From: an uncultured Eubacteriales bacterium | GTDB lineage: Bacteria; Acidobacteriota; Aminicenantia; Aminicenantales; Aminicenantaceae | Reading direction: 5' to 3' | NCBI GenBank assembly: GCA_964410125.1 | Contig: CAYPGQ010000001.1 | Location: 54,549-118,548, forward strand | Length of the DNA stretch: 64,000 nt | In this document: in pieces, positions 6,222 through 22,336 of the stretch | Position numbering within the stretch: the first letter of the stretch is position 1 | Layout: each line of letters begins with the position of its first letter | Notes under the pieces: generated by a model | Seen by the model: only the letters and a program-made list of their open reading frames with translations | Told to the model about the DNA's origin: nothing | Databases searched by the model: none | Made by a program: the position numbers and the translations under genes

Positions 6222-7547
6222 ATGAGAAAATTATTCATAACCCTTTCAATTATTTTGGTATTTTCACTTTTGTCATGCGGAACACAAAATGAAAATGTTG
6301 CTAAGAATGAGTCAGAACAGGCAGGTCAGGAAGATAGAAGAGCAAGGATGGAAAAGGAAATGGCTGAGATTAAATATGATGTACCTGATGAAATCGATAT
6401 CAATTATGAAATATTGGACAATATCGACACCTCGACATCCCCTTATGGAGTTGTTTCTCTTCCTGAAGAGCTTGGCAAAACGTTGAATGGTTTGTTCTCA
6501 AAATACACTAAGCATATGGCTCCGAATGGAAAACCCATCCACATCTTTGCTCAAGCTGGAGTGAGCGACCTTCAGGTCGCAAGGGCAAGAGAGATCCTGA
6601 AATACCATCTTACCGATGCCCCCGGTACACAATACGGTCATGACAAAGCCGCGGTTGCAAACAGAATGGCTGATGTAAGAGCCACTCTTTTATATACGGA
6701 CACAGAGATAAAATCTTTTGCCATGCGTCCTATACTGAGGGATTCAAAGCTCAGGCTTCAGGATTTGTATGCCACAGAATCTCCTGTGGAAGGAAGTTAT
6801 GAATATATCCACAATAAAGGAAAGCCAGGGGAAAGATTTACTCGTGATGCTTCGTATGAGGAGATAATGCATCTCGTTCATGACAAAGGACTTGAGGATA
6901 TATTGCCTGCCTACCATCAAGAGATCGTCGAAGCTGAAAAGGCAGCTGTCGCAGCTGATATCTATCACTATGGCCGTCTTGCACCCCATGAATACATCAT
7001 CACAGGTTTCGATATCTATTTCGGCTTATGGGACCATAATCCACAAGGTGATGGGACCTCTTTCGGAGACGAGTACCCCTTCCACACAAAACAGGAAATG
7101 AAAAAAGGAGATCCGGCTCTGTACGATCTTGTTGAAAAATTTTGGCCGAAGTATTTGACATATGACGCCTACATCGATCCTTCCTTCGAAGGGACTTTTT
7201 CCACCGTGCGCGAAAAAAACACGGAATACACTTTTAAATCCCAGTATCTTGTCAATATCATATTGACGGGAAAGAAAGACACAAACGTTCTCGGGAATGA
7301 TCAGGACAACCAATTAACCGGAAATGATGGAAACAATATTCTCACCGGAGGCAAAGGAAATGATGTCATTGCGGGAGGGAAAGGCGAAGACACTGCGGAA
7401 TATTCCGGCAATTATTCAGAATATGAGGTTACAAAAGTAGGTAATAAAACAACCGTCACTGATACTGTTCAGGATCGCGATGGAAAAGATGAACTGACGG
7501 ATATCGAAGTCCTTAAGTTTAAAGACAAAAAAGTTGAAGTGAAATAG
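6222..7547 (+). CDS. uncharacterised lipoprotein with EExxHxxH motif and C-terminal RTX-like Ca-binding repeats
   Basis: Lipobox LLSC; DASYEEIMHLVHD; GNDGNNILTGGKGNDVIAGGKGED repeats; paralog of 17810-19060. Confidence 0.8.
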   Translation: MRKLFITLSIILVFSLLSCGTQNENVAKNESEQAGQEDRRARMEKEMAEIKYDVPDEIDINYEILDNIDTSTSPYGVVSLPEELGKTLNGLFSKYTKHMAPNGKPIHIFAQAGVSDLQVARAREILKYHLTDAPGTQYGHDKAAVANRMADVRATLLYTDTEIKSFAMRPILRDSKLRLQDLYATESPVEGSYEYIHNKGKPGERFTRDASYEEIMHLVHDKGLEDILPAYHQEIVEAEKAAVAADIYHYGRLAPHEYIITGFDIYFGLWDHNPQGDGTSFGDEYPFHTKQEMKKGDPALYDLVEKFWPKYLTYDAYIDPSFEGTFSTVREKNTEYTFKSQYLVNIILTGKKDTNVLGNDQDNQLTGNDGNNILTGGKGNDVIAGGKGEDTAEYSGNYSEYEVTKVGNKTTVTDTVQDRDGKDELTDIEVLKFKDKKVEVK

Positions 7548-7580: not shown

Positions 7581-8501
7581 ATGAAAACTCGATACGTATT
7601 TTGTGCAATTCTTTGTTTGGCCCTAGTTTTGGCCTCCTGCAGCCCAGGCAAAGATGAACAAGATAAGACCGAGCCGGCAAAAACAGCGACAGAAACGACC
7701 GAAACGGTAAAAATCCATGTAGGAGGATGTATTCTAGCCTCACCGGCGGCTGAAGCGCCCGCGGATTTGTATCAGGCAACCGACGTCGTTCCGACCGAGG
7801 AATACAAACCGTTCACGAACAAGCTATCGGTCTACGGAATTACCCTGATCGGACGGGATGATATTTCCGACGATTTTATGCGAAAGGTCGCCAAAACCAT
7901 TAAAGAGATATTCCCACAAAATGAGGCCATTGAAACTGAACTGCAAAAAGAAGTTCTCAGGAACTTGTACAGATACAAAGCAGTTATCCCTCTTTTTAGG
8001 GATGAAGAGTTTGAGTTCTCTCCCGAGGATCGAGAGGCCTGGGATCTCACGACTAGCCAGAACAGCATATGCGACATTATAATGGAAGGAGTGCCCGGAC
8101 AGGTGAACGAGGTTGTCGAACATATTCTGCATTTCGTGAGCGATGTAGGACTTCACTATACATTTCCCGCTGAGTGGGGCTGCACATCGAAAACATCGAA
8201 GATATATTTTGCTATGCAGGAAGCGATCGACAAAGGGCATTACAATATCGCACAGTACAAAGAAGCGGGTATCGATGATGAAGAGCGAACAAGAGTATTG
8301 ATCCAGGAATACACTTATTGGGTCATTTTTACCGCATGGGACCTTTATGAGCCCTATGGTCCGGAAGCGGAGTGGACAGGGATCGCCAATCCTGAGGACT
8401 TAAAGAACAAGCTGCCTCTGTCTTATGAGGTTTTTGAAGAAACCATTCCGAAAATCATGGCTCCTCCCAGTCGCTCCACGCTGGAAGAATTCATTAAATA
8501 G
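7581..8501 (+). CDS. uncharacterised lipoprotein, probably distantly related to the upstream one
   Basis: Lipobox LASC; EVVEHILHFVSDVG and IQEYTY motifs; GGAGG RBS. Confidence 0.7.
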   Translation: MKTRYVFCAILCLALVLASCSPGKDEQDKTEPAKTATETTETVKIHVGGCILASPAAEAPADLYQATDVVPTEEYKPFTNKLSVYGITLIGRDDISDDFMRKVAKTIKEIFPQNEAIETELQKEVLRNLYRYKAVIPLFRDEEFEFSPEDREAWDLTTSQNSICDIIMEGVPGQVNEVVEHILHFVSDVGLHYTFPAEWGCTSKTSKIYFAMQEAIDKGHYNIAQYKEAGIDDEERTRVLIQEYTYWVIFTAWDLYEPYGPEAEWTGIANPEDLKNKLPLSYEVFEETIPKIMAPPSRSTLEEFIK

Positions 8502-8590
8502 CAGCTTCACTCGACGCCGTGGATTGCATCAACACCTCATTATTGTGTAATATAATAACGTTGGGAAACTAGCAATTTTATCCAAAGTGT

Positions 8591-9553
8591 ATGAATGTTG
8601 GGAGTGATTGTTTCATAAAAAGGATGTTTAAGATACAAAAAATTGGTCTGTATTTTCTCCTCGTTCTCTGGTTTGTGATTGCCGTCGGCTGCCGTCTGTA
8701 TCAGTTGGAAAAAAAATTGAGTCCCGGATATAAGGAATTCCTTTCTAAAGTCCGCTACATCGTAACCAAGGAGGAAAGGAAGATATTCTTGGAGCTTCCC
8801 GATTCAGAAAAAAAAGAATTCCAGGAGGAATTTTGGAGCCGGCGGGATCCTGATTCAACAACAGAAGAGAATGAATTCAAGGATGAGTATTTCCGGAGAA
8901 TCGATGAGGCCAACCGGTTATTCCATGGAGGTCGTCCTGGGTGGCTCCAAGACAGAGGAAGAATTTACATTCTTTTTGGTCCGCCCTCAGAGAGACACAC
9001 CTACTCCACAGACCCTGCACCTAGGGAAGTTTGGTACTATGGGAACTTTCCGGTGATATTCATAGATCACATGGGGACCGGAGATTACAAACTTGAAGCC
9101 CTGAATTTGATGCATCTTGCTGAACTGAACAAAGCGCAAAATGCTTTTCAAAAACTAGCCAAACCAAGGGAAGAATTCTTTGATTTTGAGGTGAAAACCC
9201 ACATTAATGAAAAGAATGAGGTCATTGTGACTTTAGAAATAAATTATAAAGATATCTGGTTTGCCGGAGTTGAGGATCGTTTGGAGACAACGATTGTATT
9301 GTCTGTGGAGGTGCTGGATGCAGAAGAGAAAATCGTTCTATCAGAAACAAAGGAGTATTCAATTTCCATCCTTGAGGATGATATAGGAAAAGAAGACAAA
9401 ATTATCATAAAGTATCCCCTGATGTTGAAGAGAGGGACTTATACATTGAATTTGGAATTAGAGAACACGTCGGGAAAGGAGAAGCGCAAAAAAATCCTGA
9501 AAATAAAGGCAAAAAGGACAGCCCGGGATTACAGATTAGAATTAATGAACTAA
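8591..9553 (+). CDS. GWxTD domain protein
   Basis: FWSRRDPD..ENEFKDEYFRRIDEAN..GWLQDRGRIYILFGPP. Confidence 0.88.
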   Translation: MNVGSDCFIKRMFKIQKIGLYFLLVLWFVIAVGCRLYQLEKKLSPGYKEFLSKVRYIVTKEERKIFLELPDSEKKEFQEEFWSRRDPDSTTEENEFKDEYFRRIDEANRLFHGGRPGWLQDRGRIYILFGPPSERHTYSTDPAPREVWYYGNFPVIFIDHMGTGDYKLEALNLMHLAELNKAQNAFQKLAKPREEFFDFEVKTHINEKNEVIVTLEINYKDIWFAGVEDRLETTIVLSVEVLDAEEKIVLSETKEYSISILEDDIGKEDKIIIKYPLMLKRGTYTLNLELENTSGKEKRKKILKIKAKRTARDYRLELMN

Positions 9554-9673
9554 AATTGTGCATATATTACAAGCTACTGGAATTATTGGAAAAGTTACAT
9601 CTCCGGAGGGTGAAGCCCTGATGTCTTTTTCCACAAAAGTTTAGCCACACATAATGGAAGAGAACCATTCAGG

Positions 9674-10558
9674 TTAACTTTTCTTGTAAAAATTGATTTT
9701 GTGAGCAATAAATGTCATTATCCAGAGCAAGTTAAAAACCAATAGCAATCCAAAAATCATAATCTTCTTTTGATAAAAAGCTGTACATAATACTATAAAA
9801 ACAATTTTGGTTTTTGCAGCATTCCATGTCCATAATCTCATTATCAACCTAAATCTTTTATAATATTGTTTTCTTTCATCCTCACTAAAATATTTAACTT
9901 CTCTTTTCTTATAGGGAAAAGTTGGCGATAAAAACCTTTCTATTGCCAGGTTATAAATATAATAGCCAAGTATGCCAATTTTTGCGATTACCCCTCTTTC
10001 TTTATATCTCAGTTCTGTATGTTTTTGGAAAAAATCACTGAAACTAGTCACAGGTTCAAATATTCCCTTTTCCATGATATTCATAAATTGCATCTTAGAA
10101 TAATCCCACCCAATGTTCTGGACAACAATCATGATAAAAACAATGACGATAACAAATAAAGTTCCCTTGCTATAATTACTCTCCCTATAAAGACTAATTG
10201 AAAGACCTATGAAAACGAATATCCCAACTAAATAATCAACTGTTCCCTCCAGTATCTTGCCAAATTCTGACTGCATATTCTTCAATCTCGCAAGAGGGCC
10301 ATCTGTACAATCTATTAAAGAAGCAATAAAAAGAAAAAGTGCGCCAAAAAAATAGTTTGAATTCCCTCCGTAATAATAAAAAACACCTGATAAAATTCCA
10401 AAAATCAACCCAACAAAAGTCAATTGGTTGGCTGAAATTGGCGTTTTTTTTAGAAATTTAGCAATAGGCCAGCCTAATGGCCTAAACATGTAAGTGTTTA
10501 CTGCTTCATCGGCTACTGCAAATAGATTGTTTTTTCCATAAATCGGGTCTTTTATCAT
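9674..10558 (-). CDS. CDP-alcohol phosphotransferase family membrane protein
   Basis: ISANQLT and DCTDGPLARLKNMQSEFGKILEGTVD signature; multiple TM segments. Confidence 0.88.
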   Translation of the reverse strand: MIKDPIYGKNNLFAVADEAVNTYMFRPLGWPIAKFLKKTPISANQLTFVGLIFGILSGVFYYYGGNSNYFFGALFLFIASLIDCTDGPLARLKNMQSEFGKILEGTVDYLVGIFVFIGLSISLYRESNYSKGTLFVIVIVFIMIVVQNIGWDYSKMQFMNIMEKGIFEPVTSFSDFFQKHTELRYKERGVIAKIGILGYYIYNLAIERFLSPTFPYKKREVKYFSEDERKQYYKRFRLIMRLWTWNAAKTKIVFIVLCTAFYQKKIMIFGLLLVFNLLWIMTFIAHKINFYKKS

Positions 10559-10632
10559 ATTTTACTCTGCACTCCAATTATTATCAAAATGAATCTATGG
10601 AGTAAAGTAAAAACTATTGGCTCTTCCCCATG

Positions 10633-11778
10633 TTAAAAATAGTAAGCAAACTGCATTAATAAAGCATCATTTTCAGGCTCTGGAACACCAACAGGCATAT
10701 CTTCATTCTTCAGAATATAGTTTAACTGCATTTTCAAATGATGAGCTTCAAAAAAGTAATTCATGCCAAAGGTCAGCCATTTATCCATATTTTGCTCATC
10801 AGGTCCCAGGAGCAACTCATTTTTATCGAATTTCACAAATTCATAGCGTGCTGTCAGTTCTAATTTTTTTGGGATTATCATTAATCCACCCTGTAAAGTA
10901 AAAGTGTCTTGAGCCGCCTCTTTAGTCTGATCATCAGAGTTCCACCAGGAAATGTCTCTATGTATATATTCGAAGGTACCGGCAAAGCCTTTAAATTTAA
11001 TGGCAGCATCTCCTCCATAAACCAAGGTTTTTTCAAGTTCTGCAACTCCTGAATTATGGCCTCCGCTTGGAGAATCATCAGATGAATAGAAATTTATTCC
11101 AAAGCCTAAAAGAGGACGTTCTAAATCCTCCAGATAAGACTGCTGCTTTTTCATGTACCCAAAGGGATGGAGATCAATTCTTCCAGCATAGAGAAATTTA
11201 TTATTGTCTTTGCTAGCACCAATATCAATGTGATAGATTTTGACTTTGCTCAGCATATTGTTCGAAAGATTTGAGACAGAGCTGCTGTTTACTGCTCCAT
11301 TATAAATGCCCACTGAATATTCCAATTTTTTATCCAGTGCAAAACCATGCACCTCGACTCCCATCTGACGAAAAGGCGCAAATTCAGATGAACGGTTTCG
11401 CTCAATCATTTGAAGATATTTTGAGGAGTTTAAAGCCTCTCTGGAGAAGGGAACATGTTTCTGTCCGATGAAGATATAAAACCACTCTGGCTTCAAGCTT
11501 AAATAGATATCTTTTAAAGTGAAGTGCTGTTTCCCTGCCTCAATTTGCACCTTAATATATGCCCATTCAGCCAAATTAGACTGGAAAGTCAGGCGCGCTC
11601 TCCGCAGAATAAGCCGGTTTGTATATGGGCTGGAATTTACGTACTGGTATTGAGTTTGCAGTCTTCCCCCAATTGTAAGCTTGGAAGTTTTTGTAGTCAC
11701 TTCTTCGCTGTCAAGAGCAAAAGTGTACACTGAGAGAATAGCTAGAACTAAAAACAATACTATAGATTTTGTTTTCAT
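10633..11778 (-). CDS. OprO/OprP-like phosphate-selective porin
   Basis: Signal peptide; IGGRLQ, LRRARL, GQKHVPFSRE motifs; alternating beta-strand pattern; C-terminal aromatic YYF. Confidence 0.8.
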   Translation of the reverse strand: MKTKSIVLFLVLAILSVYTFALDSEEVTTKTSKLTIGGRLQTQYQYVNSSPYTNRLILRRARLTFQSNLAEWAYIKVQIEAGKQHFTLKDIYLSLKPEWFYIFIGQKHVPFSREALNSSKYLQMIERNRSSEFAPFRQMGVEVHGFALDKKLEYSVGIYNGAVNSSSVSNLSNNMLSKVKIYHIDIGASKDNNKFLYAGRIDLHPFGYMKKQQSYLEDLERPLLGFGINFYSSDDSPSGGHNSGVAELEKTLVYGGDAAIKFKGFAGTFEYIHRDISWWNSDDQTKEAAQDTFTLQGGLMIIPKKLELTARYEFVKFDKNELLLGPDEQNMDKWLTFGMNYFFEAHHLKMQLNYILKNEDMPVGVPEPENDALLMQFAYYF

Positions 11779-11788
11779 TTCCTTCTCC

Positions 11789-12988
11789 TCAAGGATTTAG
11801 TGGGGCTTCCTCTTTGCAGGCATTGTTGCGTTTAAAATGGAGAAAATATGCAAGAGTAACAGAAACGGCAGCTACAAATGATAGAACTACCCAGAATGTA
11901 AATACATAATTCCATTTTCCTTGTCCCATATCAACTAAGACAGGAACGATTATCCCGATTAATACAGTTCCTACGTAACCCATTCCATCTATGAAGCCTG
12001 TCGATGCAGCTACAACATTTTCATCTTTGAATCTTGAGGGGCATGTTGTCACTAAGAAAACATGTGGTCCGTATAAAAAGAAACTGCCAATCAACAAAAT
12101 TGCAGTTGCTAATAAGCCACTTGTTAATGGAAAAATTATGAAACTAACTCCCAAAAGGCTTAAAAAGACAATACTTGTAATATCCTTGTCTAGTTTTATC
12201 TTGTTGTATACTAAAGTACCAAAAATACCAAATACTGGGATCAGAAATACTTTTAAACCAACCTTTTCCATGTCTCCTATCCCAAAATTTCCTTCTATAA
12301 AGAAATATAAGGGTATCCAGGTGATAACCCCGTATCTAACCATATTCAAAAAACATAATGATATGCCACTCATGACTATAGGGAATGATAATGTTGATCT
12401 AACCTGAGCTGTTACCTTTTGTTTTGGTTTAAACTCCATTTCTGGCTTAGTGAGTAGTAGAGATATTCCTCTTGCAAACAAGAAAACACTTGCAACCCAA
12501 AATCCGGCTTGCCAGCCCCATGTTCCAACAGCAAATGCAGAAATAAGCCATGCGATAGAATTTCCTGCTTGATAAGATGTGCCCAGGATTGTAGATGTCC
12601 TCTCCCTGCTTTTTGCATCTTTTTGAATCTCAGCATTAGCTCTCACAATAGATGACCACCCCATTGCCTGAAATCCACCATCAAGAATTTCTCCGACAAA
12701 TAACAAAATAAAAAATCCTGCAGTAAATCCAAGAAATACGTTCATAACAGCTGAGAATATGAGACCTAGCGATATATAAACAAATGGATTAAATCGTTCT
12801 GAAATCTGGCCATGCAAAAACTGACCAATGGCGTAGGCAAAGAAAAATCCACTTGATACCAAACCGACGCTATGCAGGTTCAAATCCTTATATGTAACTA
12901 AAAGCGCCGGGACCACTATGCTTAAATTTACTTTCCCAAAGTAGTAAGTTGCATAAGAAGTCCAAATGTTCCAAAATGTTTTATTCAT
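11789..12988 (-). CDS. MFS transporter, organophosphate:Pi antiporter (GlpT/UhpT-like)
   Basis: About 12 TM; YYFGKVNLS, AYAIGQF, GGFQAMGW, YGP, TGFIDGMGYVG match OPA family motifs. Confidence 0.8.
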   Translation of the reverse strand: MNKTFWNIWTSYATYYFGKVNLSIVVPALLVTYKDLNLHSVGLVSSGFFFAYAIGQFLHGQISERFNPFVYISLGLIFSAVMNVFLGFTAGFFILLFVGEILDGGFQAMGWSSIVRANAEIQKDAKSRERTSTILGTSYQAGNSIAWLISAFAVGTWGWQAGFWVASVFLFARGISLLLTKPEMEFKPKQKVTAQVRSTLSFPIVMSGISLCFLNMVRYGVITWIPLYFFIEGNFGIGDMEKVGLKVFLIPVFGIFGTLVYNKIKLDKDITSIVFLSLLGVSFIIFPLTSGLLATAILLIGSFFLYGPHVFLVTTCPSRFKDENVVAASTGFIDGMGYVGTVLIGIIVPVLVDMGQGKWNYVFTFWVVLSFVAAVSVTLAYFLHFKRNNACKEEAPLNP

Positions 12989-13122
12989 TATATCCTCTTT
13001 ATTCTTCTTTAAATCTTTTTACTTCCTTTTTATTCTGATTTTTGCTGTTGGAGCTTAAGTCTTCTAGTTGTACCGTCTTAAAACTTCCAGTACTCTGTTC
13101 TTATGACTTCATAAAATTATTT

Positions 13123-13863
13123 TCATTTTTCTCCGACGAGGATAAGATTCTTAGTGTCAATCAGGCAGTCACCATTTACATTTTTCATGTTATAAGCTTT
13201 TTTAAAAATTTCGGAGCCGTTTACATGCATCTTGTATATTTTATTTTGTTTGTCTTTAGGCAGACCGCTGTTATTTAGCCAGTCACACACACTGAAATTT
13301 TTCATTATATGAACAAAGATTCTGATGTTCTTAAAGCCTGAGTTTTTCATAAGGCTTACAAGATCTTCTTCTGTAAAAGTTAGCCTTTTTTCTTTTAATT
13401 TGAATATTCTTTTATAGTCTTCCTTAACTTCTGGTGCTGGGGGCACTCCTTCTGAGAGGACCATCTTTCCGCCAATTTTTAAAATCCTATAGCACTCATC
13501 CATTGCTTCCTGAGTTTTTTCAGTAATATGGTGGAAGACCATTCTTGCTGTTACCTTGTCAAAAACTTTGTCGCAAAATATAGAATCTCGAATATCTCTT
13601 TTGATGAAATATTTATTATCTTTCCAGTTGCTGTGGTCGAGCATGTCCTGGGAAATATCAAGGCCTATTACCTCTTTTACTAATGGAGCTATTGCATGGG
13701 CTATAACTCCAGTACCTGTCCCTACATCTAAAACTAGATTGTTGTTACTAAAATCAGCTGAGGATTTAAACGCCTTGATATAAGCCCGCTCATGTACCCA
13801 CTTAAGATTATTGTATTTATCTGATCTTATTTTCCAAAACTGCTCTTGCTTCATATCGGACAT
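13123..13863 (-). CDS. class I SAM-dependent methyltransferase
   Basis: VLDVGTGTG, IGLDISQDML, FDKV, ECYRILKIGG; alternative start 13887. Confidence 0.88.
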   Translation of the reverse strand: MSDMKQEQFWKIRSDKYNNLKWVHERAYIKAFKSSADFSNNNLVLDVGTGTGVIAHAIAPLVKEVIGLDISQDMLDHSNWKDNKYFIKRDIRDSIFCDKVFDKVTARMVFHHITEKTQEAMDECYRILKIGGKMVLSEGVPPAPEVKEDYKRIFKLKEKRLTFTEEDLVSLMKNSGFKNIRIFVHIMKNFSVCDWLNNSGLPKDKQNKIYKMHVNGSEIFKKAYNMKNVNGDCLIDTKNLILVGEK

Positions 13864-13876
13864 GTTCTGTTCTTCT

Positions 13877-15016
13877 TTAATCTTCAAATTCTTTTATGGC
13901 TTTTTTATAATCCTCAACCGTATCGATTTCTTTCCAGCCGCGCTTAATAATAACGCAGTGTATGGGAACTCCCAAATCAACCATTTCCTGAATTATATCG
14001 GTCAAGTACGCCTTTTCAAAAGTAGACGCTCTTTGAAACGGTTTTCCCCAAAAAAGCTTTTTGGAACGATTAAAATGTCTTTTGAAAATCTCAGAACCTC
14101 TCTCAGTAAGTTTCATCATGCCAATAAATTCACCATGAACATCATGCTTTTTCGCCAAAATTTTTCCTATCTCCACAACATTGTTTTCAGCATCAAAAAT
14201 AACATTTTCCGCTTCTTCTATGGGATGATCCTTGCGATTTTCATAATATCCTCTCCAATCTATATCCACGACAATTGAAATGTCCATTTTAGATTCAAGC
14301 AGTCTCTCCACGACTTGTTTTTCAAAAAGAATATCTGAATAGGAAATAATTACTCCTCCTTTAATTTCTTCCTCAGCATAGAATAATGAATTCAGGATGT
14401 TATTATTTTTATAATTATCGTTGAAATAATATTTAATTCCGGGATAACTAATTTTTTCTTCTTTATATCCTTTTATGGCCACTATGTTTTTTACTTTACA
14501 TGCTTTAAAAGCATCGATCTGACGTTGAAAAAGTGTCTTTCCTCCAAATTCAAGCATGCATTTTGGTAAATCATTTGTATAAGGCATCAATCGATTGCCC
14601 ATTCCTGCAGCAATTACAATTGCTTTCATGTGTTCCTCCTCAATCTTTCTTCTTATTTCTTTTATTTCCATGCTAGTTAATCCGTACATATTTATGGTTC
14701 TCATTAATGATGGAATTTCCTTATTTTTCTTAATAATATCAGGAATATCTGGAGGGATTTTATTTTTGGCTTTTCCAGCAAGGTCATATAAATTATCTAA
14801 ATTCGCTTCTAAAACATAAGCGATTTTTTTTATTAATTCTTTTTTTTGAGGATATCTATTATTGTTTTCTATATCATTCAGATAAGAAGGAGAAATACCT
14901 ATAGCTTTTGCCAACTTTCTTTGCCCAATATTTCTTGCCATTCTTAAGGTTTTTATGTGATTACCAAATGCTTGAGAATGCTTTTTACTAAATTTAGTTG
15001 CCATGTTCGCTAACAT
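13877..15016 (-). CDS. XRE-family HTH regulator fused to LicC/PntC-like cytidylyltransferase
   Basis: N-terminal QRKLAKAIGISPSYLNDIENN HTH; from residue 130 MKAIVIAAGMGNRLMPYTNDLPKC, YSDILF, WKEIDTVED; true start may be 15004. Confidence 0.88.
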   Translation of the reverse strand: MLANMATKFSKKHSQAFGNHIKTLRMARNIGQRKLAKAIGISPSYLNDIENNNRYPQKKELIKKIAYVLEANLDNLYDLAGKAKNKIPPDIPDIIKKNKEIPSLMRTINMYGLTSMEIKEIRRKIEEEHMKAIVIAAGMGNRLMPYTNDLPKCMLEFGGKTLFQRQIDAFKACKVKNIVAIKGYKEEKISYPGIKYYFNDNYKNNNILNSLFYAEEEIKGGVIISYSDILFEKQVVERLLESKMDISIVVDIDWRGYYENRKDHPIEEAENVIFDAENNVVEIGKILAKKHDVHGEFIGMMKLTERGSEIFKRHFNRSKKLFWGKPFQRASTFEKAYLTDIIQEMVDLGVPIHCVIIKRGWKEIDTVEDYKKAIKEFED

Positions 15017-15043
15017 GTAAACACGGTGTTTTTATTTTGTCAA
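15002..15043 (-). promoter_or_regulatory. putative promoter with two palindromic operator-like sites
   Basis: TTGACA (15043-15038), 17 nt, TTACAT preceded by TG; palindromes CATGTT-n4-AACATG (15002-15017) and AAACAC-n-GTGTTT (15019-15031). Confidence 0.5.
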
Positions 15044-15169
15044 GGACTTTTTTTTTAGCGCTTTATTTAAGTTAGAAATAAACATCAGAATTGACACCTT
15101 TTTTATTCGTGTGATATTTTTATGTAATCAGAAAAAAATAAATCCTTATAAAACCAGGAGGTTAATATT

Positions 15170-16816
15170 ATGCATAGAAGAAATTATTTAACTATTGTAT
15201 TGATTTTTCTTTTGGGACTCACATTATCATGCAGCACTCAGAAAAAAGAGGAAGCCGCTGTGGTCTCCAGCAGTGATTACAACGACCTCATCAGCCTGTT
15301 TCAGGAGTTCCGTGAATTTCAGAAACCAGAACTCATTAACGGTCTACCCGATTACTCCAAAGCCACAATGGAGGAACAAAGTCTCGGTCTGAAGCAATAC
15401 CAGAAGCGGCTGGCTGCCATCGATCCAAACAGCTGGCCTGTCGCAGAGCAAGTCGACTATGTTTTAGTCTGGGCGGAAATGAACGGGATGGAATTTTACC
15501 AACGCGTCCTTAAACCCTGGTCACGTGACCCCGTTTTCTACCTCCCATCCCAAGGAGGAGCCGGGCCTGTCATAAATATCAATCTCCGGATACGCAATGG
15601 TCTGCCTCTCCCGGATAATAAAATTGATGAATTCAGAACACAGCTGAAGTCTATCCCGGAGATTTACAAACAGGCCGAGCAGAACCTTACCGAAGCAGCG
15701 GGGGATCTGGCAACCATTGCCATATATTATATTGATCGCGAGGCCGGCAGGTACCAAAATCTTGCAAACCGCCTGGCGGAATACCATCCGGATCTGGTTC
15801 CTGATGCAGAACGGGCGCGAGATGCGGTTAAAAACTATGGTAAATGGCTCGTGGAGAATAAGAGCAGTATGACTGCCCCCGCCGGCATCGGGATAGAGAA
15901 CTACAACTGGTGGCTGCAAAACGTTCATCTTTTTCCCTATACCTGGGAGGAGTGTCTCTGCATCTCGACACACGAATATAACCGTATTGTAACCTTTCTG
16001 AAATTAGAAGAAAACAGGAACCGCAACCTTCCCGAGCTTGAGGTGGCAGATACTGAAGAGGAATGGTACCGTCGTTTGGACATAGCCCTGAATTTCGTTC
16101 TTGAGTTCCTCCGAGACGAGGAAATCTTAACAGTCCCCGACTGGCTTGATGCCGCAGACTACAGTGATCCAAACGAACCGAGAGGTCCATTGCCGGCGAT
16201 CCCTACAATCGATAGCAGAGCCCGGGAGAGAGAGGTGCTACCCGGTGAAACGCATGAATTTATTGGCCATCTGTTCGATGAGCAAAGATTAGAGCTTGAT
16301 AACCGTCAGATCCGACGTGCGAGGCGCCTTTATAATATGGATTGGATTCGTTCGGAGGGATGGGCTGTCAGCCTGGAAGAGCTGCTGATGCAGGCGGGTG
16401 TACTCGATAATCGGTCGCAAAGGGGCAGAGAAGTTGAATACCTCATGAACGCTTCACATATGAGCCTTTCACTTCCTGACCTTAGAATGCACAGCAACGA
16501 GATAAACTTTACCGAGGCAAGGCAGTACTGCGCAGAGTTAATGCCGCTCGGCTGGTCTGATGCAGATGACCGGATGGTGTGGTACGAACAGCAATCCAAC
16601 CTGCGGTTTCCGGGTTTTCATACAGGCTGCGTGGTTGGAAAGGCCCAATTCATGAAGCTGTTTAGGGAACGGGCTATGCAATTAGGAGACGAATTCAACT
16701 TACGCGAGTTTATTGACGGTTTTCTGGCAGCCGGAATGATTCCCATGGCGCTTACAAGGTGGGAAATGACCGGATATGACGATGAGATTAAAAAGTTATG
16801 TCCCGTCATAAAATAA
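15170..16816 (+). CDS. DUF885 family lipoprotein
   Basis: Lipobox TLSC; PWSRDP, HEFIGH, SEGWA, LGDEFNLREF motifs. Confidence 0.8.
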   Translation: MHRRNYLTIVLIFLLGLTLSCSTQKKEEAAVVSSSDYNDLISLFQEFREFQKPELINGLPDYSKATMEEQSLGLKQYQKRLAAIDPNSWPVAEQVDYVLVWAEMNGMEFYQRVLKPWSRDPVFYLPSQGGAGPVININLRIRNGLPLPDNKIDEFRTQLKSIPEIYKQAEQNLTEAAGDLATIAIYYIDREAGRYQNLANRLAEYHPDLVPDAERARDAVKNYGKWLVENKSSMTAPAGIGIENYNWWLQNVHLFPYTWEECLCISTHEYNRIVTFLKLEENRNRNLPELEVADTEEEWYRRLDIALNFVLEFLRDEEILTVPDWLDAADYSDPNEPRGPLPAIPTIDSRAREREVLPGETHEFIGHLFDEQRLELDNRQIRRARRLYNMDWIRSEGWAVSLEELLMQAGVLDNRSQRGREVEYLMNASHMSLSLPDLRMHSNEINFTEARQYCAELMPLGWSDADDRMVWYEQQSNLRFPGFHTGCVVGKAQFMKLFRERAMQLGDEFNLREFIDGFLAAGMIPMALTRWEMTGYDDEIKKLCPVIK

Positions 16817-17809: not shown

Positions 17810-19060
17810 ATGAAAAAATTATACGTCACTTTAATAATCCTTGGTTTTTTAATGACATTTCTAGCATGCAAAAAGTCTGATGAGGAGCTTGTCACACTTC
17901 CTGAAATAGACATCTCTGCGTCACCAAACGGCATCGTGGAATTGCCGGAGGATGTCCCATCCGTAATTAGGGATATTTTCACAAAATACACAAAAATCCT
18001 GGCCCCAAACGGCAAACCCATCCATATGCTGGCACAAGCCGGATGGACAGATAACCAGATCAAAAAAGCCCGAAATATCCTCCAATTCATCCTGATCGAC
18101 TATCCGGGATCGGAATATGGGAGCGACAAATCTATGATTGCAAATGCTATGGCCGATAGAAAGGCCACCATGGTCTTTTTTAATACCGAACCCGATCTTC
18201 ACGAGGCTATGCGCGGCCCTCTGGGAAGAGGAACGGATCTGAGCATGCAGGATTTGCGCGGGAATGAAAATCCGGCCGAAGGGATGAAGGACTACATGAA
18301 TCACATAACCCGTGATGCCTCATTTGAGGAGATATGGCATCTTGTGCATGATAACGGCATCAAGGTTACCCGGCCCGCGATGATCGCCGAAATGCAGAAA
18401 GCAAATGACGCAGCGGCAGAGAAAGGATGGCGCGCTTGGCCGGATGACGAACCTCAAGAGCACGCCAATGAATATGTCGGTGTCCTCATCGATAATTATT
18501 ATGATTTATGGACGGTAAGACCGAAAAAATACGAAGGAAGAGATATCAGTCCTAAGGATGTACCAGAGGGATATTCCCATTTCGGACGTTATTTTGCCGG
18601 CAGCCGTGAGAGGATGAAAGAGCTTGACTCAGATGGATATGCTTTGATCCAAAAATTCTTCCCTCCTTATCTGACCTACACGCCTGAACTGCCGGAGTAT
18701 TTTGAGGGAACCTTTTCTCTTAAATTTGACGAATCCTTAGTTTACACCTATAAATCACAGCATCTTGTCAATGTTAACCTAACGGGCAACAACAATTCTT
18801 CTTTAATCGGAAATGGCTTCGATAACTCACTCACTGGCAATGCCGGGAATAATATCTTCGAAGGAAGAGGCGGAAACGATACCATGGATGGCGGAATCGG
18901 CACGGATACGGCCGTGTTTTCAGGCATATACACCGAGTACAAAATCACAGAAGCTGAGGGAACGTTCATAGTCGAGGATAATCAACAACAGAGAGACGGA
19001 TCCGATACTCTAAAAAATATCGAAATACTAAGATTCAGTGACAAAGAAATAATACTGTAG
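17810..19060 (+). CDS. uncharacterised lipoprotein with EExxHxxH motif and RTX-like repeats
   Basis: Lipobox FLAC; APNGKPIH, DASFEEIWHLVHD, YTYKSQ shared with 6222-7547; GNAGNNIFEGRGGNDTMDGGIGTD. Confidence 0.8.
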   Translation: MKKLYVTLIILGFLMTFLACKKSDEELVTLPEIDISASPNGIVELPEDVPSVIRDIFTKYTKILAPNGKPIHMLAQAGWTDNQIKKARNILQFILIDYPGSEYGSDKSMIANAMADRKATMVFFNTEPDLHEAMRGPLGRGTDLSMQDLRGNENPAEGMKDYMNHITRDASFEEIWHLVHDNGIKVTRPAMIAEMQKANDAAAEKGWRAWPDDEPQEHANEYVGVLIDNYYDLWTVRPKKYEGRDISPKDVPEGYSHFGRYFAGSRERMKELDSDGYALIQKFFPPYLTYTPELPEYFEGTFSLKFDESLVYTYKSQHLVNVNLTGNNNSSLIGNGFDNSLTGNAGNNIFEGRGGNDTMDGGIGTDTAVFSGIYTEYKITEAEGTFIVEDNQQQRDGSDTLKNIEILRFSDKEIIL

Positions 19061-21217: not shown

Positions 21218-22336
21218 CTATCTGTTCAGAATCTCTTTTAGCGCAGATAAAACACGATCGACATTTTCTTCCCGGGCAGTGTGCCCCATCAACCCGATGC
21301 GCCATATTTTTCCCGCAAGAGGTCCTAATCCGGGGCCTATTTCTATTTTGTATTCCTGCCGCAGTCTACTCCTCACTTCGGCATCATCTGCCCCTTCAGG
21401 AATGATGATCGAATTAAGCATGGGGAGCCGGTATTCGGGCGCCACAAGCATCTGAATCCCTAGGCTTTCTAAGCCTCCAACAAGTTTTTCGTGGTTCTCG
21501 AGGTGCCGCTGAAACACTTCTGTTAAGCCTTCCTCAGTTATCAAAAACAAGGATTGGTACAGCGCATACAGCATATTAATCGGAGCCGTATGATGGTAGA
21601 CTCTCGTTTGTCCTTCCCAATATTTTGTCAGCATACTCACATCCAGATACCAGTTCGGGACTTTACTCTGGCGGTTCAGAATAATGCTCAATGCTCTATC
21701 AGAAAACGACACCGGAGCCAAACCCGGGGGGCAGGAGAGGCACTTTTGTGTGCCACTGTATAAGGCATCTATGCCCCACAAATCGGTTGCTACCTCGATT
21801 CCACCAAGACTGGTCACAGTGTCAACCATGTAAATCGTATCCGTTCCCTTAATAAGCTCACCAATTTCCTCGACAGGATTTCTCACTCCCGTTGACGTCT
21901 CCGCATGAACGACTGCGACAATCTTATAATTTTTCGATCTCAATTTGTCTTCCACTTTTTCTGGAACCACAGGGTTACCCCACTCGAACTCCAAAGAATC
22001 CACATCAGCCCCCAATCGCGTCGCCACATCCTGCATACGTTGTCCAAAAACACCATTGATCAAGATCAATACCGGATCATTTTTTTCTACCAGGTTCACA
22101 AAACAGGTTTCCATCCCTGCAGATCCCGTGCCAGAAACTGGGATGGTCATCTTATTCTGGGTTTGCATAACAATCTGGAGAAGCCTTTTGATCTCGTCCA
22201 TGATAATGATGAAATAAGGATCCATATGACCAAGAGTTTTTCGGCTTAATGCTTCATAAACGGTTTCATGAATACAGGAAGGACCAGGCCCCATCAATAA
22301 AATTTCTTCAACGTCGTCGAGCACATTTTTTTTCAT
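21218..22336 (-). CDS. alanine-glyoxylate / serine-pyruvate aminotransferase (class V)
   Basis: LLMGPGPS, SGTGSAGME, VHAETSTG, SGTQKCLSCPPGL, YHHTAP, WRIGLMG. Confidence 0.92.
   Translation of the reverse strand: MKKNVLDDVEEILLMGPGPSCIHETVYEALSRKTLGHMDPYFIIIMDEIKRLLQIVMQTQNKMTIPVSGTGSAGMETCFVNLVEKNDPVLILINGVFGQRMQDVATRLGADVDSLEFEWGNPVVPEKVEDKLRSKNYKIVAVVHAETSTGVRNPVEEIGELIKGTDTIYMVDTVTSLGGIEVATDLWGIDALYSGTQKCLSCPPGLAPVSFSDRALSIILNRQSKVPNWYLDVSMLTKYWEGQTRVYHHTAPINMLYALYQSLFLITEEGLTEVFQRHLENHEKLVGGLESLGIQMLVAPEYRLPMLNSIIIPEGADDAEVRSRLRQEYKIEIGPGLGPLAGKIWRIGLMGHTAREENVDRVLSALKEILNR

Follow-up and report, generated by a model that had tools for sequence, protein, structure and literature searches.

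It is proposed that the AT-rich island of five genes in the 64,000-nucleotide stretch analysed here (the window; contig CAYPGQ010000001.1 of an uncultured bacterium of the GTDB family Aminicenantaceae) is a self-regulated mobile cassette for the salvage of an imported phosphonate-type head group, a reading that we hold to be moderately probable. The five genes are a horizontally mobile cassette that has been transferred as a unit. The imported compound would be a small phosphorus-containing anion not produced by the cell, most likely a phosphonate, with 2-aminoethylphosphonate (2-AEP) and related molecules, among them methylphosphonate (MPn) and 2-hydroxyethylphosphonate (2-HEP), as candidates. 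It would cross the outer membrane through an OprO/P-type porin and the inner membrane through a major facilitator superfamily (MFS) protein related to the organophosphate:phosphate antiporters (OPA). Where the cassette carries the methyltransferase (MT), the compound would be methylated, probably on nitrogen. The LicC/PntC-type nucleotidyltransferase (NT) would couple it to CMP, and the AF2299-like CDP-alcohol phosphotransferase (CAPT) may move the phosphonyl head group onto a membrane-embedded alcohol to give a phosphono-lipid or a lipid-linked conjugate. A kinase would be superfluous, as phosphorus is already part of the substrate, and repression of the operon is probably the role of the XRE domain that is fused to the activating enzyme.

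The five open reading frames (ORFs; 9674-15016) lie head to tail on the minus strand with gaps of 74, 10 and 134 nucleotides and an 11-nucleotide overlap of NT and MT, and the Pfam matches of all five exceed the curated cut-offs. The GC content of the island is 0.348, that of the remaining window 0.441, and the lowest value among 192 same-size windows outside the island is 0.398 (mean 0.439, standard deviation 0.019). The preliminary description of this DNA had reported five co-oriented genes, more AT-rich than their flanks and lacking both a kinase and a phosphoenolpyruvate (PEP) mutase; the ORFs, the Pfam and NCBIfam assignments and the GC profile bear this out, and Pfam found neither domain in the five genes.

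On a metagenome contig (L095) all five genes recur in unchanged order, with 94.2-94.5% nucleotide identity to the window across 9674-15068 only (blastn), and the approximately 10 kb of flank on each side of that copy has no match to the window. Three metagenome DNA runs from marine sediment or the subsurface contain the island contiguous with its flanks, and one contig of the DNA runs spans 8000-12001 with zero differences, while contigs of lower depth diverge at 9667-9678 and at 15055. At 9505-9805 the three runs show roughly twice the contig depth and several different sequences continue from 9667-9678, so that a short stretch at the left edge seems to be present in several contexts there. 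In four further cassettes (L093, L094, L096 and L098), 85-97% identical, the MT gene alone is missing, and a corresponding MT-less joint (13092 to 13876) occurs at low depth in two DNA runs; on these grounds the MT is an optional accessory. No convincing terminal direct or inverted repeats flank the cassette, no tRNA was found at 1-30000 of the window, and there is no integrase among the ORFs scanned. Among the runs listed as containing this DNA none is RNA. Contigs over parts of CAPT, porin, MFS and NT also came from a run labelled metatranscriptomic that is probably DNA, and no conclusion is drawn from it.

Among 40 related genomes (80-95% complete), NT orthologues of more than 70% identity occur in two of the 24 from the same family and in none of the five from the same genus. 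One orthologue-bearing genome (L009/L013) has the order NT-MFS-porin-CAPT; the other (L010/L012) has CAPT-NT-MT-MFS-PhnD-PhnC-PhnD/E-porin, with both importer types in one operon and with identities to the window of 76% for NT, 85% for MT and 80% for MFS. Archaeal loci of the Methanocellales show the order NT-MFS-MT-CAPT, and the window MFS is 77.6% identical over 393 residues to the Methanocellales copy, some Aminicenantes copies reaching only 66%; NT domains (61% identical), MTs (42%) and CAPTs (22-39%) are less alike between the window and these archaea. The same-genus genomes hold several paralogues of the DUF885 protein that borders the island, and since the flank protein is merely 40-48% identical there, no orthologous empty site can be defined in them. 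The window adds several new observations: a five-gene form that includes porin and MT, the presence/absence polymorphism of the MT, the sharp borders of the cassette together with the 94%-identical copy in another context, and the near-identity of the MFS to archaeal copies. The neighbourhood search thus found the genes conserved together elsewhere, and the head-group reading of the preliminary description stands on that count.

The chief reason to favour a phosphonate substrate is that the supply of one and the same NT comes from a phosphonate pathway in some genomes and from a phosphonate/phosphite-type importer in others. An NT-anchored set of 80 genome loci was assembled, with ORFs clustered de novo and scored with hidden Markov models; NT was recovered in 76 (window counted), and next-gene counts were made on the 71 NT loci with at least 900 nucleotides downstream. 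The next same-strand gene after NT encodes a PhnD-type binding protein in 42 of these 71, followed by an ABC ATPase and PhnE or taking the form of a PhnD-PhnE fusion, and a window-type MFS in nine; a transporter lies within two genes of NT in 55. Among the 16 NT loci without a near transporter, seven have genes for PEP mutase (Ppm), Fe-ADH or the methylphosphonate synthase MpnS in the importer's place. The clearest case is a Pelagibacteraceae locus (L054) with the order ilvD-manC-TagF-like-PhyH-[cytidylyltransferase-Ppm]-Ppd-FeADH-NT-MpnS-SMR, in which a TagD-like domain is fused to Ppm; Ppm (TIGR02320, 368 bits) and the phosphonopyruvate decarboxylase Ppd (TIGR03297, 352.6 bits) both exceed the NCBIfam cut-offs, and the cupin matches MpnS (PDB 6b9s) at 1.7e-108. 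Sibling SAR11 genomes carry ilvD-manC-(TagF-like)-NT-PhnD-PhnC-PhnE-SMR at the same locus, so that the methylphosphonate synthesis set (L054) and PhnDCE (L044, L048, L049, L051 and others) are alternative fillings around the XRE-NT. In a tree of 78 NT domains, the NT of L054 nests within the SAR11 clade that is linked to importers, on a branch of length 0.012. PEP mutase is present in the relatives L054, L035, L067 and L071.

Phosphotransferases recur in the same set: TagF-like proteins in 23 loci, CAPT in ten and LicD in three, with at least one of them in 36 of the 76, and CAPT is found in eight of the 11 genome loci that have both NT and MFS. Two other kinds of gene recur in these neighbourhoods. 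APS-kinase-like P-loop genes lie near NT or MFS in L021, L028, L031, L038, L039, L070 and L074 and further in L122, L124, L130, L138 and L164-L166; this resembles the Campylobacter O-methyl-phosphoramidate pathway, in which a kinase acts after a LicC-like enzyme and phosphorylates the CDP conjugate at the 3' position. B12-binding radical SAM genes adjoin the module in L029 (7657-9234), L089 (13605-15056), L019, L035, L067, L127, L141 and L157; the fosfomycin enzyme Fom3 methylates a cytidylylated phosphonate, and a CMP-phosphonate intermediate beside such genes would fit.

The NT itself consists of a helix-turn-helix (HTH_3, residues 21-66, 37.3 bits against a cut-off of 23) and a nucleotidyltransferase domain (NTP_transf_3, residues 132-242, 41.3 bits against 27). 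Its AlphaFold2 (AF2) model, with a pLDDT of 76.9, is placed by Foldseek nearest PntC-AEPT (6pd2, 3.5e-13), LicC (1jyk, 1.2e-12) and Thermotoga IPCT (4jd0, 1.3e-12). Residues A136, A137, G138, G140, R142, K152, D228, E363 and D365 are invariant in 15 diverse sequences, and we take them to be the glycine-rich nucleotide loop with its Arg and Lys and the acidic metal ligand. The activation step foreseen in the preliminary description is consistent with this predicted fold, and CTP is the probable co-substrate. The XRE-NT family is 59-82% identical across phyla: 3650 proteins match at E of 1e-5 or lower, the best 120 all being at least 58% identical, and the source labels include "phosphoenolpyruvate phosphomutase", "choline kinase/DNA-binding XRE" (JGI) and "L-glutamine-phosphate cytidylyltransferase". 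In the NT tree (quick maximum likelihood) the window belongs to an Aminicenantes/KSB1 clade (8 rows, SH-aLRT 90) that is the sister of a proteobacterial PhnD-linked clade. The helix-turn-helix (HTH) is lacking at 18 of the 76 NT loci, archaeal ones among them (contig ends truncate some of the ORFs), and the transporter and transferase are kept. Beside the HTH-less NT of the Methanocellales there is a second, divergently oriented NT paralogue of 28% identity (L087, 8807-9697; L090, 8808-9686), located in a region of glycosyltransferase and epimerase genes.

The N-terminal half of the MFS is nearest PgtP, UhpC and GlpT among the NCBIfam models, below the cut-offs of these; against TIGR00881 it scores 90.7 bits (cut-off 407.75), with the N-terminal half alone aligned, and it is 24% identical to E. 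coli GlpT. The GlpT residue R269 is invariant in 10 of 10 MFS sequences, and at the R45 position the window-type subfamily has Lys and the L068/L084/L089 type Arg; presumably these are the two phosphate-binding arginines of GlpT. A second set was anchored on the MFS (80 metagenome loci, with upstream counts on the 68 that have at least 450 nucleotides upstream). A cytidylyltransferase is among the two genes upstream of the MFS in 61 of the 68, LicC-like in 20, TagD-like (PF01467) in 42 and both in one, and lies within three genes in 65; the TagD-like CTP_transf_like protein is 147 amino acids long. Among the 22 MFS loci that extend for at least 3 kb in each direction, CAPT occurs in seven, a LicD-family protein in six and a TagF-like protein in three, with at least one of them in 14. 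The TagF-like neighbour (cluster c4) has no Pfam match, and a PDB profile search gave no match at E up to 1; its assignment to Glyphos_transf (PF04464) comes from ESM Atlas features only (0.99, 26 of 30 matches) and motifs read by eye. As judged from these neighbourhoods, the recurrent unit is an importer, a cytidylyltransferase and a phosphotransferase, each slot being filled by non-homologous alternatives, and the core is NT or a TagD-like cytidylyltransferase with an importer and any of three predicted phosphotransferase types.

The porin matches Porin_O_P (PF07396) in two stretches (53.3 bits against a cut-off of 20.9), and its orthologues are confined to the Aminicenantes-like loci L011, L012, L013 and L060 and the metagenome loci L093-L096, L098 and L151, a distribution by which it is lineage-specific. 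A DUF2490 protein occupies a similar position in some Planctomycetia and Omnitrophota loci. The import through both membranes that the preliminary description had suggested agrees with the company of these genes, as porin and MFS travel with NT, the NT of relatives stands directly before a PhnD-type ABC importer and the L012 operon holds both importers; inward transport is the predicted direction.

With the MT profile, two uncharacterised Bacillus proteins rank first in the PDB (BH2331, 3.6e-25; YcgJ, 3.5e-20), and the nearest characterised structures are phosphoethanolamine N-methyltransferases (6e-14 to 1e-11). The position of PfPMT H132 aligns with the invariant H119 of the MT and that of D128 is Met; we take these two PfPMT residues to be the catalytic His and Asp. 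For the N-methylation put forward in the preliminary description as a possibility, the MT, an optional part of the cassette, is a candidate enzyme by its nearest characterised relatives. A phosphite substrate with P-methylation by the MT was also considered and judged chemically unlikely for a class I methyltransferase.

The signature of CDP-alcohol phosphotransferases, D-x2-D-G-x2-A-R-x8-G-x3-D-x3-D, lies on a pair of transmembrane helices, and the window CAPT keeps D83, D86, G87, A90, R91, G100 and D108 (Pfam score 57, cut-off 22). A profile of 18 module CAPTs matches AF2299 at 1.3e-32, PI synthase at 8.7e-18, IPCT-DIPPS at 1.1e-16, CHPT1 at 3.5e-12 and PgsA at 2.1e-7, and Foldseek with the AF2 model (pLDDT 70.1, above 85 over residues 21-130) ranks the structures in the same order, with AF2299 at 1.6e-4 and a probability of 1.0. 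The motif and the nearness to AF2299 and DIPPS point to the transfer step of the preliminary description, with a lipid or other membrane-embedded alcohol as the presumed acceptor.

On the minus strand, the TTGACA hexamer of the cassette promoter is followed after about 17 nucleotides by a palindrome, core TGTTAGCGAACA, that overlaps the annotated ATG of NT (Table 1). Since this ATG (15016) lies inside the conserved palindrome, the ATG at 15004 is more likely the true NT start. The same layout of TTGACA, spacer and operator is found in L012, L013, L014, L017, L024, L084 and L088, and it recurs in Aminicenantes, Omnitrophota, Thermodesulfobacteriota, KSB1, Rhodospirillales and some SAR11 loci. 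Within 80 nucleotides upstream of the NT start, the operator core is present exactly in 10 of the 54 HTH-bearing loci that have sufficient sequence there, in 13 with at most one mismatch and in 21 with at most two, the background per 100 nucleotides being 0.002, 0.004 and 0.010, respectively. The exact core occurs twice in the 5.08 Mb genome, and the second copy (C64) lies inside an ORF, in line with chance. A simple consensus promoter scan did not list the cassette promoter, the -10 element of which is atypical. From this arrangement, the fused XRE domain probably represses its own operon at the promoter-overlapping palindrome.

Table 1. Features of the cassette, with their positions in the window
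Feature	Position	Strand	Remarks
NT: XRE helix-turn-helix fused to a LicC/PntC-type nucleotidyl (probably cytidylyl) transferase	13877-15016	-	379 amino acids; likely true start 15004
MT: class I S-adenosylmethionine (SAM) methyltransferase, optional cassette accessory	13123-13887	-	254 amino acids; Pfam Methyltransf_11 3e-18
MFS: relative of organophosphate:phosphate antiporters (GlpT/UhpT/PgtP), proposed inner-membrane importer	11789-12988	-	399 amino acids; Pfam MFS_1 2.5e-29
Porin: OprO/OprP-type anion porin, proposed outer-membrane entry	10633-11778	-	381 amino acids; Porin_O_P 3.5e-14
CAPT: AF2299/DIPPS-like CDP-alcohol phosphotransferase, integral membrane protein	9674-10558	-	294 amino acids; CDP-OH_P_transf 3.9e-15
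Operator-like palindrome, core at 15004-15015	15003-15016		directly after promoter; overlaps annotated NT start codon
TTGACA -35 hexamer, cassette promoter	15038-15043	-	read from sequence
Transferred cassette, full extent	9674-15068		blastn against L095, contig loose ends, GC step

The island is bordered by genes for a GWxTD-domain protein (8591-9553) and the DUF885 protein (15170-16816). About 2-3 kb beyond either side are two plus-strand paralogues (6222-7547 and 17810-19060, one blast cluster), the first with RTX calcium-binding repeats.

The source genome assembly is 90.4% complete (5.08 Mb), so that absences from it fall short of proof. It has no match to the PEP mutase model TIGR02320, no Ppd or PhnW over cut-off, no PhnD-type protein, no choline kinase (PF01633), no PhnJ and no phosphonatase (PhnX); it holds four further CAPT genes and, on another contig, an inositol-1-phosphate synthase. 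The best PhnW-model match of the genome (169.9 bits, cut-off 400.8) is a class V aminotransferase at 21218-22336 on the minus strand, 6 kb from the island, which is probably an ordinary aminotransferase. By its gene content the cell appears unable to make or break down phosphonates, which fits a salvage for building rather than for feeding.

Several observations weigh against a phosphonate head group that is imported, activated and handed to a lipid. The support for all steps of the pathway is comparative, not biochemical. The best PDB sequence match of NT is LicC, the phosphocholine enzyme (4e-15), and PntC-AEPT comes second (1.2e-6); the choice between AEP and phosphocholine is described in the main text of Rice et al. 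(2019, PMC6697681) as mainly steric, so that sequence alone cannot decide between them. Among the importers, the PhnD-type protein of L012 is nearest the phosphite binder PtxB (8.8e-25), with E. coli PhnD only a little behind (3.1e-18), and as PtxB, Prochlorococcus PhnD and E. coli PhnD lie at similar distance from it, these matches do not discriminate the ligand. Ppm adjoins the MFS/cytidylyltransferase pair in L106 and L171, and import is therefore not the sole conceivable role of the MFS; the MFS family also pairs with TagD-like and TagF-like proteins, which by name fits CDP-glycerol. As to the CAPT, its identity between loci is only 22-39%, the third acidic residue of the motif is E104 instead of Asp (likewise Glu in L029), its nearest NCBIfam models are inositol-phosphate synthases with CDP-diacylglycerol or CDP-archaeol donors, and its donor and acceptor assignment could be reversed. 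At L084, where both NT and MFS are present, no CAPT lies within 10 kb.

The strongest of the competing explanations, which we nevertheless consider unlikely, keeps the same logic and replaces the phosphonate by an imported phosphate ester, phosphocholine or phosphoethanolamine, with the MT in the part of a phosphoethanolamine N-methyltransferase and with a phospholipid of the choline or ethanolamine type as the product; the cassette would then be a true kinase-free analogue of the Kennedy and Lic pathways. The rank of LicC as the best solved sequence match of NT agrees with it, as do the nearness of the MT profile to the phosphoethanolamine N-methyltransferases with the alignment of H119 to the presumed catalytic His of PfPMT, the detectability of CHPT1 with the CAPT profile and the lack of a choline kinase in the 90.4%-complete genome. 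However, what accompanies the NT family is PhnD-type importers (42 of 71) and Ppm/Ppd/MpnS clusters rather than choline genes, the closest relative has PhnDCE in its operon, the CAPT is much closer to AF2299 than to the choline phosphotransferases, and the presumed catalytic D128 of PfPMT is not conserved in the MT. The preliminary description had left the head group as phosphorylated or phosphonate; its import part is retained, and between the two a phosphonate is probably to be favoured over phosphocholine.

If instead sn-glycerol 3-phosphate were the substrate, the MFS would import it, NT would make CDP-glycerol and CAPT would add glycerophosphate to a lipid or lipid-linked glycan in a teichoic-acid-like manner. 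That the MFS is GlpT-like, that TagD-like neighbours occur in 42 of 68 MFS loci and that TagF-like or LicD transferases are frequent would fit, and AF2299, the nearest solved CAPT, was reportedly crystallised with CDP-glycerol. We think this improbable: a dedicated porin, importer and repressor are hard to explain for a central metabolite, NT orthologues stand in methylphosphonate biosynthesis clusters and before PhnD-type importers, TagD-like domains are themselves fused to Ppm (L054), and the MT would be left without a role. GlpT positions K80, H165, N162 and Y266, presumably those that bind the glycerol part, are moreover replaced in the MFS (H165 by Tyr).

It is more improbable still that the island is a nutrient-scavenging or sensing unit, in which the XRE-NT is a ligand-sensing repressor that binds without converting, porin and MFS bring in phosphorus, and CAPT and MT are passengers. 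The operator does overlap the promoter, and OprO/P porins with PhnD or OPA transporters are classic parts of phosphorus acquisition, but the genome has no C-P lyase, phosphonatase or over-cut-off PhnW that was found, the catalytic-type residues of NT are invariant across the family, and the 18 NT loci without HTH keep transporter and transferase. Furthermore, CAPT is co-transferred at 94% nucleotide identity in the cassette, and three unrelated phosphotransferase families recur beside the pair of importer and cytidylyltransferase. An IPCT/DIPPS-like pair making CDP-inositol and an inositol-phosphate solute or lipid is highly improbable, for although the IPCT/DIPPS model of NCBIfam matches both NT (8.1e-9) and CAPT (3.7e-9), IPCT 4jd0 is among the top fold matches of NT and the genome has an inositol-1-phosphate synthase, the scores are far under the cut-off (35-36 bits against 580), an inositol phosphate made inside the cell leaves the importers unexplained, and the family context consists of phosphonate genes.

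Extending the proposed phosphonate salvage beyond this window, we tentatively suggest, as a possibility that we would not yet favour, that import-fed phosphonate decoration is widespread and has been overlooked: from sediment microbes to SAR11, bacteria and archaea would take up ready-made 2-AEP or methylphosphonate for surface lipids and glycans, not as a source of phosphorus, by a modular set of importer, cytidylyltransferase and phosphotransferase. The cassette in the window would convert 2-AEP to an N-methylated phosphonolipid, a C-P analogue of phosphatidylcholine, would have moved recently between bacteria and methanogenic archaea, and would use its activating enzyme as a supply-sensing repressor. 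Phosphonates are a large share of dissolved organic phosphorus, and phnD-type uptake genes are normally taken as a sign of nutrient acquisition. If many PhnD- and OPA-type importers feed CMP activation and attachment, part of the environmental phosphonate uptake would go into cell surfaces, and the interpretation of marker genes in phosphorus-cycle surveys would change, SAR11 included. There would also be a genetic handle on the formation of bacterial and archaeal phosphonolipids or phosphonoglycans without PEP mutase, and one more enzyme-repressor fusion would be added to the known examples. As the cassette is compact (5.4 kb, one promoter), it is directly testable by heterologous expression.

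The five-gene set had been called unfamiliar as a described system in the preliminary description, and a literature search of main texts likewise found no paper on an import-fed version or an XRE fusion; neither appeared in a term search of the Acker preprint. Among the closest of the systems that have been described is the Pnt pathway, in which, according to the main text of Rice et al. (2019, PMC6697681), the LicC-fold enzyme PntC activates a small phosphonate as a CMP conjugate for cell-surface glycans or lipids. The words salvage, transporter, CDP-alcohol and helix-turn-helix are absent from that main text. PntC-AEPT is the top fold match of NT, and NT relatives occur in Ppm clusters. In contrast to Pnt, the supply here would come by import, through porin and MFS or, in relatives, through PhnDCE, and a search of the genome found no Ppm; NT bears an XRE DNA-binding domain, and an AF2299-like CAPT takes the place of the transferase.

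The Lic phosphocholine pathway of respiratory bacteria, with the permease LicB, the kinase LicA, LicC and LicD, shares the logic of import, activation and attachment; NT is a LicC homologue, and LicD-family transferases are found in sister loci. The cassette differs in having no kinase, the proposed import being already phosphorus-bearing, and in having an OPA-like MFS with an anion porin instead of a choline permease and CAPT instead of LicD. In the Kennedy route and the PMT-CCT-CPT routes of plants and Plasmodium, methylation of a phospho-base, cytidylyl activation and CDP-alcohol transfer to a lipid follow one another, an order mirrored by the proposed steps, and the MT is nearest the PMTs among characterised structures. 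The term "Kennedy-like" used in the preliminary description therefore holds as an analogy; membership in the Kennedy pathway does not, since there is no kinase and NT has the LicC fold and not that of CCT/ECT (PF01467). The CAPT is also closer to AF2299 and DIPPS than to CHPT1/CEPT1, and the substrate is probably a phosphonate. Of the solved structures, Archaeoglobus fulgidus AF2299 and IPCT/DIPPS (PDB 4o6m, 4mnd) are closest to the CAPT; in them, a domain of nucleotidyltransferase type is joined with a CAPT for which the CDP-alcohol is soluble. Unlike these, the cassette has two separate genes for the two functions, with importer, porin, MT and repressor domain added, and the CAPT shares only 13-19% identity with them in the Foldseek alignments.

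A precedent for import is AepP of Pseudomonas putida, a GlpT-like OPA-family MFS that imports 2-AEP and, as stated in the main text of Murphy et al. (2021, PMC8316502), always adjoins the catabolic genes PhnWAY or PhnWX. The window MFS, which is OPA-like and is likened to AepP by the published description, adjoins cytidylyltransferases and phosphotransferases. For methylphosphonate clusters of SAR11 and Nitrosopumilus, the main text of Lockwood et al. (2022, PMC9381506) lists [quoted passage not shown] near mpnS and infers methylphosphonate esters from these neighbours; the JGI label of the XRE-NT family, with its "choline kinase", echoes that list. Those clusters make the phosphonate, whereas the cassette and the PhnDCE-linked loci would combine the tailoring half with an importer where the synthesis genes would otherwise stand. 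The cassette is thus best classed among the known head-group activation pathways, as a variant of them.

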